Source of the DNA: an uncultured Clostridiaceae bacterium
GTDB taxonomy: Bacteria > Bacillota > Clostridia > TANB77 > CAG-508
Length of the DNA stretch: 64,000 nucleotides
Direction of reading: 5' to 3'
Assembly (NCBI GenBank): GCA_948356915.1
Contig: CAOJCG010000004.1
Coordinates: 32,163-96,162, forward strand
Within the stretch, counting starts at the first letter, position 1. Every line of letters begins with the position of its first letter. The position numbers were made by a program, and so were the translations under genes. Below, one piece after another: positions 31,991 through 37,987 of this stretch. The notes below the pieces were generated by a model that searched no databases, was not told the DNA's origin, and worked only from the letters and a program-made list of their open reading frames with translations.

Positions 31991-33478
31991 ATGGAAAATA
32001 ACCAAGAACCAGAAGTAGATTTAAACCAATTATTACAAATAAGAAGAGATAAATTATCAAAATTAAAAGCAGAAGGAAAAGACCCTTTTGAAATAACAAA
32101 ATTTAATAGAACACACACAAGTAAGCAAATTGTACAAAACTATGATGAACTAGAAGGAAAAGATGTAACTATAGCTGGAAGAATAATGGCAAAAAGAATA
32201 ATGGGGAAAGCTTCATTTTGCCACATTCAAGATGGAGAAGGAAAAATACAAAGCTATGTAAGTATAAATGAATTAGGAGAAGAAAGTTATAAACAATTCA
32301 AAGAAGATGATATAGGAGACATTATAGGAATAACAGGTTTTGTATTCAAAACAAGAACAGGAGAAGTATCAATACACGCTAAAGAAGTAACATTACTTTC
32401 AAAATCATTAAGACCACTACCAGAAAAATATCATGGATTAAAAGATACAGACTTAAGATATCGCCAAAGATATGTAGACTTAATAGTAAACCCAGAAGTA
32501 AAAGATACATTCCTAAAAAGAATACAAATTCTTGGGGAAGTAAAAAACATATTAAACGAAAAAGGATACTTAGAAGTAGAAACACCAATATTAAACACAA
32601 TAGCAGGAGGAGCAGCAGCACGCCCATTCATAACACACCACAATACATTAGATATGGACATGTACCTAAGAATAGCAAATGAACTATACCTAAAAAGGCT
32701 AATAGTAGGAGGTTTCGACAAAGTATATGAAATGGGAAGAATGTTCAGAAATGAAGGAATGGACATAAAACATAATCCAGAATTTACAAACATAGAATTA
32801 TACTCAGCATATGAAGACTACAACGACATGATGGATATAACAGAAGAAATAATATCAAAAGTTGCATTAAAAGTATTAGGAACAACAAAAATAACATATC
32901 AAGGAACAAAAATTGACTTAACTCCATCATGGAAAAGAATATCAATGATAGATTCTATAAAAGAAGTAACAGGAGTAGATTTCAACAAAATAGAAACAGA
33001 CAAAGAAGCACTAAAAGCAGCAAAAGAACTAAACGTAGAATTAGACGAATTAAAGCTAACAAGAGGAGAAATAATAAACCAAATATTCGAAGCAAAAGTA
33101 GAAGAAACACTAATACAACCAACATTTATATATGATTACCCAGTAGAAGTATCACCATTAACAAAAAGAAAACCATCAGACCCACGTCTAACAGAGCGTT
33201 TCGAAATATTCATAGGAACAAGAGAATATGGAAATGCATATTCAGAACTAAATGATCCAATAGATCAATATGAAAGATTTAAAAAACAAGTAGAAGCAAG
33301 AGAAGCAGGAGACGAAGAAGCAAACATGATGGACGACGACTTCATAAATGCACTAGAATACGGAATGCCACCAACAGGAGGATTAGGAATAGGAATAGAT
33401 AGATTAGTAATGTTACTAACAGACTCAGCTTCAATAAGAGATGTATTACTATTCCCAACAATGAAACCACTAAACTAA
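31991..33478 (+). CDS. lysS: Lysine--tRNA ligase (class II)
   Basis: 495 aa, class II motifs, anticodon-binding OB fold. Confidence 0.95.
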
Positions 33479-33499: not shown

Positions 33500-34105
33500 A
33501 TGATTTTAGAAAATAAATTAAATATTACTGACCAAGCAGAATTAGCAAGAGAAGAAGAAAAAATTAGTAAAATATGTGCAAAGAAGATGTTTGAAACAGG
33601 ATATTTGAGTACATTAGAACCAGGAACATTTGAAACTTTAAAGAAGATACACAAATATTTATTTAAGGAAATATATGAATTTGCAGGAAATTTAAGAAAA
33701 GTAAATATAGCCAAAGGAAACTTTAGATTTGTACCTCTTGCTTATCTTGAAGAAGCAATTAAAAACATCGAAAAAATGCCTCAATCTAACTATGAAGAAA
33801 TAATTGAAAAATATGTTGAAATGAATATTGCACATCCATTTAGAGAAGGAAATGGAAGAAGTACACGAATATGGCTTGATTTAATTTTAAAAAAAGAATT
33901 AAACTTAGTAGTTGATTGGAGTAAAGTAGATAAAACAGATTACTTACTTGCAATGGAGCGTAGCCCTATAAAAGATACAGAAATTAAACAATTATTAAAA
34001 CAAAGTTTAACAGATAAAATAAATGATAGGGAAGTATATATGAAAGGTATAGATAACAGCTATTTATATGAAGGATATTTATCATTTAAAACAGAAGAGT
34101 TATAA
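33500..34105 (+). CDS. Fic-family protein, class III (C-terminal inhibitory motif SxxxEG)
   Basis: FIC motif HPFREGNGRSTR; C-terminal SYLYEG. Confidence 0.8.
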   Translation: MILENKLNITDQAELAREEEKISKICAKKMFETGYLSTLEPGTFETLKKIHKYLFKEIYEFAGNLRKVNIAKGNFRFVPLAYLEEAIKNIEKMPQSNYEEIIEKYVEMNIAHPFREGNGRSTRIWLDLILKKELNLVVDWSKVDKTDYLLAMERSPIKDTEIKQLLKQSLTDKINDREVYMKGIDNSYLYEGYLSFKTEEL

Positions 34106-34132
34106 ATTGTAAAAATAGAAAAGAGGAAAACT

Positions 34133-34855
34133 ATGAAGATACCTATTAATGTTATGCAAAAATTATCCAAAATAAAAAATTCGCTATATGATGACATAAA
34201 GATAGAATATTTATATCATTCAAATAAGTTAGAAGGCAGTACATTTAATATTGAACAATTAAATATTCTTTTAGAAGAAAATATGGTAGTTGGAGAGCAC
34301 TCAATTAATGATGTACAAGAAACTATTAATTCATTAGAATTATTTGATTTTGTTGTAGAAACTTTAAATGAGAAATTAACAGATAGATTACTTAGAGAAT
34401 ATCATTCGATTTTAAAGAAAAACACAAGCGATGAGAATTATGGGTTTGTAGGAGTATATAAAAAGATTTCTAATAAATTAAGAAATGTAGATATTAAATT
34501 AGCTGAGCCATATGAGGTTGAAGAATTAATTAAAGGTTTATTAGAAAATAAGATAAAAAGTATAGAAAATATAGCCGATTTTCATCAAAAATTTGAACAG
34601 ATACATCCTTTTCAAGATGGAAATGGAAGAATAGGAAGATTTATAATACTAAGACAATGTTTAGAAAATAATATCGATTTAATTGCTATTGATGACGAGT
34701 ACAATAAAGAATATAGAGAAGCTTTATATAAGGCTCAAACTTCAGGAAATTTAGAACAATTAGTCCAAGTATTTGAAAAATGTCAAAAAAGACTTGATGA
34801 AAAATTACAAAATTATATGCCAACAATAGAACAACTATCTAAGGAAGTTGAATAA
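34133..34855 (+). CDS. Fic-family protein, class II-like (N-terminal inhibitory motif SxxxEG)
   Basis: FIC motif HPFQDGNGRIGR; N-terminal SNKLEG. Confidence 0.8.
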   Translation: MKIPINVMQKLSKIKNSLYDDIKIEYLYHSNKLEGSTFNIEQLNILLEENMVVGEHSINDVQETINSLELFDFVVETLNEKLTDRLLREYHSILKKNTSDENYGFVGVYKKISNKLRNVDIKLAEPYEVEELIKGLLENKIKSIENIADFHQKFEQIHPFQDGNGRIGRFIILRQCLENNIDLIAIDDEYNKEYREALYKAQTSGNLEQLVQVFEKCQKRLDEKLQNYMPTIEQLSKEVE

Positions 34856-34881: not shown

Positions 34882-35658
34882 ATGTTTTCATTTGGATATG
34901 ATAAAAGAATATTATATGTAATACTAGCAATATTCATAATAATGAATATTGGCAGTTACCTTACAAGCCAAGATAAATTATTAAGTTTAGTACTAACCTT
35001 GCCAGCAGTGTTAATAGCAATAACCTTCCACGAATTTGCCCATGCATTTGCAGCAGATAAGCTAGGAGATGATACACCAAGAAGACAAGGAAGGCTAAAC
35101 CTAAATCCGCTATCACATTTAGATCCAATAGGATCTATAATGCTAGTATTTGCAGGTTTTGGATGGGGAAAACCAGTAGAAATAAACCCAAGAAACTTTA
35201 ATAGAAACAGAAGTATGTCTGCTAGTGAAGCAATAGTTTCATTTGCAGGTCCAGCTATGAATTTTATACTAGCAATAGTATTTTCTATAATAATAGGAAT
35301 AACATTAATAGTAACTAACAGCTATATAAATATAACTTCATACACAATGCAAATAGTAACAGCAAACCAAATAACGGCAGTAATAATACAAATGCTAATG
35401 ATATGTGTATCTGTAAATTTAGGATTAGGAATATTTAACCTAATACCACTACCACCATTAGATGGTTCAAAAATACTAAGAAACTTTTTACCATACAATG
35501 CAAAAGAATGGATGGATAGGAACTATCAAATATTATATATAATATTTATAGTAATATGGATAACACCAATAGCAGGAATGATAATATCTCCTATAATATC
35601 AGGTGCATATGAAGGAATACTAAAACTTATATTAAGTTTGTTTGGAAGAATAATATAA
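34882..35658 (+). CDS. Site-2 protease family (peptidase M50) membrane metalloprotease
   Basis: HEFAH zinc motif, LDG motif (NLIPLPPLDGSKIL), multiple TM helices. Confidence 0.8.
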   Translation: MFSFGYDKRILYVILAIFIIMNIGSYLTSQDKLLSLVLTLPAVLIAITFHEFAHAFAADKLGDDTPRRQGRLNLNPLSHLDPIGSIMLVFAGFGWGKPVEINPRNFNRNRSMSASEAIVSFAGPAMNFILAIVFSIIIGITLIVTNSYINITSYTMQIVTANQITAVIIQMLMICVSVNLGLGIFNLIPLPPLDGSKILRNFLPYNAKEWMDRNYQILYIIFIVIWITPIAGMIISPIISGAYEGILKLILSLFGRII

Positions 35659-35667
35659 TAGAAAGAA

Positions 35668-36669
35668 ATGAAAAAGATGAAAGATATATTAATATTAGGA
35701 ATAGAATCAAGTTGTGATGAAACAGCAGCAGCCGTAGTAAAAAATGGAAGAGAAGTTTTATCAAATGTAATAAGTTCACAAATAGAAATTCACGAAAAAT
35801 TCGGTGGAGTAGTACCAGAAATAGCTTCTAGAAATCATGCAGAAGCTATTTCAAATGTTGTAAAAAAAGCATTAAAAGAAGCAAATGTAACATTACAAGA
35901 GATAGATGGAGTGGCATGTACTTATGGACCAGGACTAGTAGGAGCTTTACTTGTAGGGGTGTCATATGCAAAAGCGGTTTCATATGCATCAAACAAACCA
36001 TTAATAGGAACAAATCATATAGAAGGACATATAGCAGCAAACTACATAACACATAAAGAACTAAAACCACCATTTTTAGCATTTGTAATATCAGGAGGGC
36101 ATACACACCTAGTACATATAAAAAACTACAAAGAATTTGAAATAATAGGAAAAACAAGAGATGACGCAATAGGAGAAGCATTTGATAAAGTGGCTAGAGT
36201 AATAGGATTAGGTTATCCAGGAGGACCAAAAATAGACAAGCTAGCAAAAGAAGGAAAACCAAACATACAACTACCAAAAACACACTTCGAAAACCTAGAC
36301 TTCAGTTTCAGCGGAATAAAAACAGCAGTAATAAACTTAAACCACAAAACACCAGACCTAAACAAAGCAGACTTAGCAGCAAGCTTTGAACAAGCAGTAA
36401 CAGATGTACTAATAGAAAATGCAGTTAAAGCATGTGAAAAATTAAATTTGAAGACAATAGCACTAGCAGGTGGGGTATCAGCCAATAGTTATATAAGAAA
36501 TAGATTTCTAGAGTTAGAACAAACAAACCATATAAAAGTATACTACCCAGAACCAATATTATGCACAGATAATGCTGCAATGATAGCTTCAGCAGGATAT
36601 TTCAACTACATAAATAAAATAACATCAAATTTGGAATTAAATGCAGTACCAAATTTAAAAATCAACTAA
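35668..36669 (+). CDS. tsaD: tRNA N6-adenosine threonylcarbamoyltransferase TsaD
   Basis: 333 aa Kae1/Gcp family, [14 protein letters not shown]... Confidence 0.9.
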
Positions 36670-37497: not shown

Positions 37498-37509
37498 GTA
37501 AATATATGA

Positions 37510-37618
37510 TAGAATAATAAACTGTAAGCCGCCTGAGTCGGGCTAAAAATGCTAAATATATTTAGCTGCCTAGTATTTTATGCTTAGCGAGTATACATAT
37601 AAAGGGAGGTGTACGTTA
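37510..37618 (+). promoter_or_regulatory. Probable L21 (rplU) leader region
   Basis: Structured leader (gccgcctgagtcgggc, gctaaatatatttagc) directly upstream of rplU, as for the Firmicutes L21 leader. Confidence 0.35.
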
Positions 37619-37987
37619 ATGTACGCAATAATCGAAAGCTGTGGAAAGCAATACAAAGTATCAGAAGGAGATATAGTATTCTTCGAAAAATTAGATACAG
37701 AATTAGGTAAAAAAGTTACATTTAAAGAAGTAGTATTAGTATCTGATGACAAAAAAGTAGAAGTAGGTGCTCCTTACGTAAAAGGTGCTAAAGTAGAAGG
37801 AAAAGTAGTTGAACATGGTAAAGGTAAAAAAATTATAGTTTACAAATACAAAGCTAAAAAGAACTACAGAAGAACACAAGGTCACAGACAACCATATACA
37901 AAAGTTCAAATTACAAAAATAGCACTAGCTGCTGAAAAAGCTACAAAAGCAGAAACTGCTACAAAAAAAGAAACAGTAGAAGCTTAA
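37619..37987 (+). CDS. rplU: 50S ribosomal protein L21 (with a C-terminal A/K/T-rich extension)
   Basis: [18 protein letters not shown]... Confidence 0.9.

Follow-up and report, generated by a model that had tools for sequence, protein, structure and literature searches.

Two adjacent Fic genes, one class III and one class II, in a variable slot of a clostridial lysS-M50-tsaD operon

Two adjacent genes for Fic-domain proteins, here called Fic1 and Fic2, occupy positions 33,500 to 34,855 of a 64,000-nucleotide stretch of DNA (the window, meaning the whole stretch analysed) from contig CAOJCG010000004.1 of an uncultured Clostridiaceae bacterium, where they lie between lysS and a gene for a site-2 protease of the M50 family. 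We give somewhat better than even odds (about 0.55) to the reading that they encode two independent, self-contained AMP-transferases with conditional activity and are accessory cargo of the gap between lysS and the M50 gene, a high-turnover slot. An earlier note made from the sequence alone had taken the pair for a possible stress-signalling module. That proposal does not fit the related loci, in which the slot is empty, holds a single Fic gene, holds both in reversed order or holds other cargo, and in the closest of which Fic1 is mostly lost.

Occurrence of the two genes in related genomes

The Fic1-Fic2 pair, whose conservation in relatives the earlier note had proposed to check, is not conserved as a unit, and either gene can occur alone. 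A census anchored on Fic2 drew on 80 species-representative loci that carry a homologue of it, and at 30 of them the homologue is next to lysS and/or M50-tsaD. Fic1 was absent from 22 of these 30, survived only as a 3′ stub in four (L003, L004, L018 and L063) and was intact in four others, where it stood downstream of Fic2 (L006, L020, L068) or apart from it (L016). At the 50 loci where the Fic2 homologue lies in another genomic context, no Fic1-type gene was found within 8 kilobases in any. Fic1 also occurs without Fic2: 47 collection blocks list one Fic1 protein of 92% identity, and the six contigs displayed for it all read lysS-Fic1-M50-tsaD. The order Fic2-Fic1 was seen in L179-L182.

A second sample, anchored on tsaD and not selected on Fic, came from a metagenome scan and is a small census: only some 15 loci belonged to the right clade, and six of these were informative. 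Four of the six had an empty slot, with the M50 gene directly 3′ of lysS (L183, L187, L188 and L194), and two held unrelated cargo, a TetR gene with a P-type ATPase gene in one and a membrane protein gene in the other. As several members of the clade have nothing in the slot, the lysS-M50-tsaD operon works without either Fic gene. Other cargo in or beside the slot comprised HipA_C/HipA-like kinases (L007:6812-7690, L062:8784-9698 and L053:9950-10840), a DUF3990 gene with its partner (L003:3190-4096), a weak PemK/MazF match (L074:7303-7821) and a bPH_2 gene (L054:8726-9430), along with, as judged by eye, an integrase/IS91-like transposase region (L053:11086-13076), a NUDIX-like protein and thioredoxin-like genes. 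The lysS-M50 slot behaves as an integration or turnover hotspot inside a housekeeping operon.

The exact Fic1-Fic2 arrangement of the window was recovered from two further contigs only, of runs SRR30218823 and SRR30218847. Four contigs from other samples carry a Fic2 that is 98% identical, with Fic1 present only as a 96-amino-acid remnant. In these four contigs, as well as in L003 (97%) and L004 (93%), the 5′ 146 or 170 codons of Fic1 have been swapped for an unrelated segment of about 270-300 bp, with junctions falling at a microhomology, AGATAAAA, that is present twice (near codons 145 and 171 of Fic1). The remnant open reading frames (ORFs) measure 35-96 amino acids, and the part encoding the C-terminal inhibitory helix alone survives. 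The replacement segment holds an ORF of 79 amino acids with no Pfam match, intact in L004 only. Given that the nearest relatives keep Fic2 with a mere remnant of Fic1, Fic1 is dispensable beside Fic2.

Identity and regulatory class of Fic1

Fic1 has the marks of a class III Fic protein, a single FIC domain of ~190-200 amino acids with the motif [S/T]xxxE[G/N] in a C-terminal helix, placed on the inhibitory glutamate of its homologues. Residues 2-201 align without gaps to the Enterococcus faecalis class III enzyme EfFIC (PDB 5NV5; further structures include 6EP0), with an E-value of 7e-83 and ~70% identity over 200 residues in a protein of the same length, and the match to Neisseria meningitidis NmFic (PDB 2G03/3S6A) has an E-value of ~3e-63 over ~170 residues. 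Fic1 also passes the NCBIfam equivalog NF046029 (protein adenylyltransferase Fic, NmFic type), scoring 301.1 bits for a cut-off of 230 over model positions 2-177 of 177. Its H112 aligns with H111 of EfFIC, the catalytic histidine of that enzyme, and its SYLYEG motif falls column for column on the SYYYEG of EfFIC (5NV5, E190) and NmFic (2G03, Y183 and E186), of which E190 and E186 are the inhibitory glutamates (PMC6408439). The tyrosine that becomes auto-AMPylated in NmFic, Y183 (PMC12894286), is conserved in Fic1 as Y188, so that Y183/E186 of NmFic correspond to Y188/E191.

Fic1 thus shares with EfFIC the catalytic motif HPFREGNGRxTR, the S-Y-x-Y-E-G inhibitory helix and the metal-binding acidic residue of the motif (PMC6408439), and differs from it in reading SYLYEG where EfFIC reads SYYYEG and in being chromosomal, within a lysS operon of a metagenome-assembled genome (MAG) of uncultured Clostridia. 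Relative to NmFic it has ~25 additional N-terminal residues. The Ca2+/Mg2+ switch and auto-AMPylation are features of EfFIC, and the tetramer interface, the targeting of GyrB and the concentration-dependent activation are features of NmFic; Fic1 was compared with both by sequence only.

Identity and regulatory class of Fic2

Fic2 is of class II, in which the [S/T]xxxE[G/N] helix lies N-terminal to the FIC core, its S30 and E34 falling on S31 and E35 of Clostridioides difficile CdFic (CD0569). The two proteins match over Fic2 residues 11-214 (PDB 4X2E; E-value 1e-54, ~50% identity). In wild-type CdFic the columns of SNKLEG read SNKIEG, and in the deposited S31A/E35A mutant (4X2C) they read ANKIAG; the Fic2 motif is invariant across alignment A1. 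The catalytic motif HPFQDGNGRIGR is identical in the two proteins and the inhibitory motif occupies the same position, while the C-terminal ~25 residues of Fic2 diverge.

An AlphaFold2 model of Fic2, built on a 13-sequence alignment, was of moderate quality (mean per-residue confidence, pLDDT, of 72.8); its confidence was low for the flap, the catalytic loop and the inhibitory motif, and fell below 50 at residues 32-35. We used it for fold matching only, not for geometry, and the position of the inhibitory motif rests on the sequence alignment because the model is only moderate there. The top Foldseek matches of the model were the CdFic structures 4X2E, 4X2D and 4X2C (E-values ~1e-11, TM-scores 0.68-0.8), the best fold match for Fic2, followed by BT_2513, FICD and SoFic.

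CdFic is described as auto-AMPylating despite its inhibitory glutamate (PMC8097203). The term self-inhibited, which the earlier note applied to both genes, holds as far as the glutamate motifs stand in inhibitory position in both, and is less certain for Fic2 because CdFic is reported to do so with the glutamate in place. The motif-independent auto-AMPylation and the dimer-based regulation of CdFic (PMC8097203) are only assumed to carry over to Fic2.

Features common to both proteins

A six-frame scan of the whole window with the FIC motif H.F.[DE][GA]N[GK]R..R returned two matches only, one in each Fic ORF, and the canonical AMPylation-competent form HxFx[D/E]GN[G/K]RxxR is present as HPFREGNGRSTR in Fic1 and HPFQDGNGRIGR in Fic2. 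Each protein has exactly one [ST]xxxE[GN] motif. Both match Pfam PF02661 of the Fido superfamily (52.8 bits for Fic1 and 59.4 for Fic2, with a cut-off of 24). From their 50-70% identity to enzymes shown to auto-AMPylate (PMC6408439 and PMC8097203), we infer that Fic1 and Fic2 would transfer AMP from ATP to protein hydroxyls. A recent tandem duplication was considered as the origin of the pair and rejected, as the two proteins are 27% identical over 104 residues around the motif and belong to different subfamilies.

The layout of class I FicTA modules, in which a separate antitoxin bears the inhibitory motif and the Fic protein lacks it, is not that of the window: both Fic proteins hold the motif themselves, and the gaps around the two genes (21, 27 and 26 nucleotides) leave no room for an antitoxin gene alongside them. 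Class I modules (VbhT/VbhA, EcFicT/YhfG) have the same FIC core and an inhibitory [S/T]xxxE[G/N] glutamate that acts alike, and the difference is that in the window the helix is built into the enzyme in both genes with no antitoxin ORF. Partner genes were also sought as small or overlapping antisense ORFs around the two genes, and the search gave only low-complexity antisense ORFs of 45-79 amino acids, typical for AT-rich DNA; an antisense partner was rejected, as these ORFs are of low complexity and the sense frame is under strong selection.

The earlier note had described two adjacent Fic genes at exactly these coordinates, each with a canonical FIC motif, the first of class III with a C-terminal SYLYEG and the second of class II with an N-terminal SNKLEG, lacking a separate antitoxin-like partner and flanked by lysS upstream and by a site-2 protease and tsaD downstream, and the alignments, profile matches and gap lengths agree with that description throughout. 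The profile searches that it proposed placed Fic1 in NF046029 and left Fic2 outside the SoFic equivalog (see below). It had named inhibitory motifs out of position, or a decayed copy, as grounds for giving the description up; both motifs align to mapped glutamates, and both genes are full length with a low ratio of nonsynonymous to synonymous substitution (dN/dS).

Integrity and selection

Both Fic genes are intact and under strong purifying selection. Their products are colinear with the solved homologues, without gaps in the core, and full length with intact motifs, and for each protein 118-120 of the 120 database clusters nearest to it retain both motifs. Compared with orthologues in eight related loci, dN/dS was 0.075-0.15 for Fic1 and 0.08-0.17 for Fic2, as low as or below the values of lysS and tsaD. 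In protein conservation across species the Fic genes outrank lysS, M50 and tsaD (at L173, 92% for Fic1, 82% for lysS and 67% for TsaD), and their synonymous divergence (dS) is about half that of lysS and tsaD (0.07 vs 0.21 against L003; 0.66 vs 1.3 against L005). These values and the lower GC content of the Fic genes suggest exchange among related species or unusual constraint; the lower dS by itself fits more recent exchange.

It is hardly credible that either copy is an artefact of assembly or a pseudogene in decay. The truncation of Fic1 in the closest relatives would suit such a view, as would the finding of the exact arrangement in only the two further contigs; against it stand full-length ORFs colinear with homologues of known crystal structure, the intact motifs, the dN/dS of 0.075-0.17 and the independent assembly of the same sequence in two runs.

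Accessory character and possible links to defence

The GC content of the Fic genes (24-26%) is below that of the flanking genes (29-35%). Fic1-type genes occur in 1017 plasmid records, 797 of them from Enterococcus and many mobilisable, and Fic2-type genes in 228, including records from Helicobacter, Piscirickettsia and Clostridium. Both proteins match PDC-S04 models of PADLOC over their full length, Fic1 with 331 bits to PDLC04842 (positions 1-200 of 202) and Fic2 with 291 bits to PDLC04837 (9-231 of 234), scores to be read in the knowledge that the PADLOC library sets no curated cut-off for the PDC-S04 models. Together with the toxin-antitoxin-like neighbours in the slot, the plasmid-borne families and the PDC-S04 match point towards accessory toxin-like or defence cargo over a housekeeping signalling unit.

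SoFic-type class II Fic proteins have been reported as single-protein phage defence (PMC12249575). Fic2 has the class II architecture in common with SoFic and does not reach the SoFic equivalog NF046030 (27.2 bits vs 550, with 240 amino acids vs 361; 72 bits to the PADLOC SoFic model). SoFic differs from it in its length of 361 amino acids with an extra C-terminal domain, and there is no AS1-like small gene 3′ of Fic2.

A tandem of the same two subfamilies was found once in a viral collection, at L085:5001-6543 (IMG/VR UViG_3300029091_000055; the same contig as L143), where a Fic1-type gene (74% identical) is followed after 43 nucleotides by a class II Fic of 298 amino acids fused to a helix-turn-helix. 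It is flanked by an AAA_21/RloB pair and by a T5orf172 gene with type I restriction-modification hsdM/hsdS genes, a defence-island-like setting. This was the only one of ten Fic1-type loci from the viral collection with the other Fic type within reach.

Proposed mode of action

Under the reading of independent cargo, Fic1 and Fic2 would be gained and lost independently between lysS and M50 of the conserved lysS-M50-tsaD operon, and would probably be transcribed by read-through from the lysS promoter. The glutamate inhibiting each enzyme would be intramolecular: for Fic1 it would be E191, in a C-terminal helix, and for Fic2 E34, in an N-terminal one. By analogy with characterised homologues, relief of the glutamate block would let AMP pass from ATP onto a side-chain hydroxyl in a cellular target, with slowed growth as the outcome. 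We draw these steps from work on EfFIC (PMC6408439) and on NmFic and CdFic (PMC12894286 and PMC8097203). For Fic1 the route would probably be that of NmFic and EfFIC, in which loss of the oligomer and auto-AMPylation in cis of the buried Y188 would unfold the inhibitory helix; its likeliest target, again by analogy, would be GyrB/ParE-type topoisomerase subunits, and its glutamate could also support metal-dependent de-AMPylation. Fic2 would probably follow CdFic, a dimeric enzyme whose auto-AMPylation is described as depending little on the motif (PMC8097203). Neither Fic would need the other, and the role of each is most likely a single-gene, toxin-like conditional growth arrest or a candidate defence function.

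Several observations weigh against this. The lower dS of the Fic genes could reflect codon bias, not exchange. Their protein conservation, higher than that of the neighbours, and their tight operon-like spacing with translation-related housekeeping genes would fit a physiological regulatory role. PDC-S04 is an unverified defence candidate, for which one test in a native host gave no defence activity (bioRxiv 10.1101/2024.12.20.629700). The L085 tandem, an independent joining of the same two subfamilies, hints at a functional link that independence does not predict, although the tandem would also be accounted for if both families are cargo of islands. Finally, the GyrB/ParE target of Fic1 is extrapolated from NmFic (~57% identical), and EfFIC has no known target.

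Among the other explanations, we regard as possible, if doubtful, that both genes are dedicated single-gene anti-phage abortive-infection systems, as class II SoFic is, in a defence hotspot; a role in phage defence is also compatible with independent cargo. The full-length PDC-S04 matches, the report on SoFic-type proteins, the HipA-like, DUF3990 and MazF-like genes in the same slot of relatives and the L085 tandem between AAA_21/RloB and type I restriction-modification genes all speak for it, whereas the candidate status of PDC-S04 with its negative test, the failure of either protein to reach the SoFic equivalog, the clearly non-defence cargo also seen in the slot (TetR with P-type ATPase, thioredoxin-like genes) and the housekeeping genes immediately around the pair in the window argue the other way. 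The view that the Fic genes would form a cooperative stress-signalling module co-regulated with lysS, M50 and tsaD, tuning translation or envelope stress by reversible AMPylation and not acting as toxins, draws on the operon-like packing among housekeeping genes, between which no terminator was found, on the strong purifying selection with protein conservation above lysS and tsaD, on the ability of EfFIC-type enzymes both to AMPylate and to de-AMPylate (PMC6408439) and on Fusobacterium Fic loci also reported beside tRNA-modification genes (PMC11796403). It is nevertheless unlikely, since the slot is empty in several members of the clade, each Fic occurs singly and in varying order with Fic1 truncated in the nearest relatives, no regulatory RNA was found 5′ of lysS and both families are largely plasmid-borne elsewhere.

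Glutamate-bearing FIC enzymes can remove AMP as well as add it (PMC6408439), and tandems of the two subfamilies recur in the clade in both orders, and once in L085, which would suit an antagonistic pair, toxin-antitoxin by enzymology, in which one enzyme would AMPylate a target or its partner and the second would either take the AMP off again or activate its partner. We think this very unlikely, as most relatives hold only one of the two, the loss of Fic1 beside an intact Fic2 is tolerated, and the other type lies near none of the 50 Fic2-type loci elsewhere and near one of the ten Fic1-type loci of the viral collection. A joint reading, in which the Fic genes of the slot would be translationally gated toxins, the class III and class II types possibly functionally linked, and those of the window an AMPylation/de-AMPylation pair, antagonistic or hierarchical, with a coupling to the lysS-tsaD operon, seems to us fairly improbable.

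Split orthologues of Fic2

Although Fic2 of the window is intact and not split, its orthologue is split after residue 54 in at least ten sister species (species-representative MAGs L054, L059, L061, L062, L063, L068, L074, L077, L079 and L080). The first ORF, of 54 amino acids (MKISIN...YHSNKLEGSTFSKENLIDLLEQKQVNR, then a stop), carries the SNKLEG inhibitory motif; the +1 frame encodes the remainder of the Fic domain, uninterrupted by stops in all ten, and in most species it lacks a start codon for ~115 nucleotides. Purifying selection extends over both frames, dN/dS being 0.03 for the first ORF, 0.11 for the 39 second-frame codons that precede any ATG, GTG or TTG and 0.105 for the remainder, compared with 0.5 and 5.9 in wrong-frame controls. 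In the protein database, 72 clusters of such short ORFs come from many assemblies.

Relative to in-frame sister sequences there is exactly one extra C before GGT (GTT AAT C GGT GAA), and because it sits there the zero frame reads AAT CGG TGA. CGG is used in none of 6017 codons of the neighbouring genes, vs 236 uses of AGA. All ten retain the extra C, including those in which the codon overlapping it has changed (to ATC, ACC or AGC), and a +1 shift at CGG would restore the colinear protein ...QVN-GEHF.... Slippage at the run of A was considered and rejected, the run not being conserved (CGAAAAC, CAAAAGC, A8) and the extra base being the C before GGT. In the divergent L274, which reads GTT AGG TGA, the second ORF has a GTG start and overlaps the first by 11 nucleotides, and in L080 a GTG start lies 16 nucleotides downstream; these two look like true two-gene, class I-like arrangements, and split orthologues of some sister species do resemble the class I layout. 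For the split as such, the pattern suggests a programmed +1 frameshift at a hungry arginine codon or a fission into an inhibitor peptide and an enzyme.

As a separate observation, a widespread in-frame N-terminal fragment of the Fic2 type, 94 amino acids long (L263:4001-4285; P0288, in 88 collection blocks), has the inhibitory helix and two more helices without a catalytic motif, and stands by itself in another genomic context, with a GNAT acetyltransferase gene 3′ of it.

Layout of the locus and neighbouring genes

The genes from lysS to tsaD are closely spaced, with gaps of 21 nucleotides between lysS and Fic1, 27 between Fic1 and Fic2, 26 between Fic2 and M50 and 9 between M50 and tsaD (Table 1), and a Shine-Dalgarno-like sequence precedes each of them. 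No terminator-like site was found between lysS and tsaD. In relatives, lysS is syntenic with M50-tsaD. The promoter-like site 5′ of lysS is the likeliest source of read-through into both Fic genes, and is weak evidence, the count of such sites being that expected from shuffled sequence. The lysS leader has no T-box or riboswitch, and no Rfam family at gathering score and no tRNA gene was found in the whole window, including ~37500-37620, 5′ of rplU, where a ribosomal-protein leader might be expected. A search around both Fic genes for flanking repeats or recombination sites of a cassette gave only the FIC-motif DNA that they share and chance AT-rich matches.

Table 1. Features of the locus and of related loci. 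Positions are those of the window unless a locus is named.
Feature	Position	Strand	Basis or remark
Promoter-like site TTTACT-17-TATAAT, 5′ of lysS	31927-31955	+	Consensus scan, 10/12 matches
lysS, class II lysyl-tRNA synthetase, upstream backbone gene	31991-33478	+	Pfam tRNA-synt_2 1e-94, tRNA_anti-codon 2e-16
Fic1, 201-aa single-domain class III FIC AMP-transferase, EfFIC/NmFic type	33500-34105	+	PDB, NCBIfam and PADLOC matches; dN/dS
Fic1 FIC catalytic motif HPFREGNGRSTR (H112, E116, R123)	33833-33868	+	Kept in 118/120 closest cluster representatives
Fic1 C-terminal inhibitory-helix motif SYLYEG, residues 187-192 (S187, Y188, E191)	34058-34075	+	120/120 closest representatives
Fic2, 240-aa class II FIC AMP-transferase, CdFic type	34133-34855	+	CdFic alignment, Foldseek, PADLOC; dN/dS
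Fic2 N-terminal inhibitory-helix motif SNKLEG, residues 30-35 (S30, E34)	34220-34237	+	CdFic alignment; 119/120 closest representatives
Fic2 FIC catalytic motif HPFQDGNGRIGR (H158, D162, R169)	34604-34639	+	Six-frame scan; kept in 118-120/120 closest representatives
Peptidase_M50 (site-2-protease family) membrane metalloprotease, downstream backbone gene	34882-35658	+	Pfam PF02163, 5.8e-16
tsaD, tRNA t6A threonylcarbamoyltransferase, backbone gene	35668-36669	+	Pfam TsaD 3.8e-98
Split Fic2	L061:8001-8733, L068:7995-8733, L079:7986-8733, L054:8001-8733, L080:276-1008, L063:7761-8493
Related split loci	L274:577-1306, L275:1442-1730
Fic1 replacement sites in nearest relatives	L267:2727-3017, L003:1215-1640, L004:7555-8005		Position of window 33500-34105

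Other irregularities were seen among the neighbours. An ORF of 361 amino acids on the minus strand between recN and lysS (window 30726-31811) has no Pfam or PADLOC match; the recN-lysS region is also variable, because L184 and L193 have recN directly 5′ of M50. The M50 gene appears as two ORFs (99 and 137 amino acids) with overlapping matches to the window protein at L179:5630-6371, and also in L008, L010, L018 and L063. The tsaD gene is broken in some MAGs (L008, L014, L017, L063 and L074); for M50 as for tsaD, real disruption and assembly error are both possible. The host lineage is one of uncultured gut Clostridia with a GC content of 29%, and the genome records closest to it are MAGs that bear the labels Clostridia, Clostridiaceae or Candidatus Merdicola.

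Significance

Fic1 and Fic2 are further members of structurally characterised families (EfFIC/NmFic and CdFic) that are already well known, and the comparative series of the slot and the split orthologues are the parts most worth following. One operon slot shows a natural series, which runs from the vacant state through either Fic gene alone to the two together in both possible orders and includes truncated copies. The series could be used in seeking phenotypes or targets of Fic enzymes in gut Clostridia, and it argues against taking Fic genes in tandem for a single unit. The split Fic2 could exemplify a conversion between Fic regulatory classes or recoding-controlled toxin expression. If the frameshift is true, one gene would yield either a free 54-amino-acid inhibitory-helix peptide or the full-length enzyme; if the fission is true, the result would be a class I-like antitoxin/toxin pair. 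The split is thus relevant to toxin-antitoxin evolution and to programmed frameshifting.

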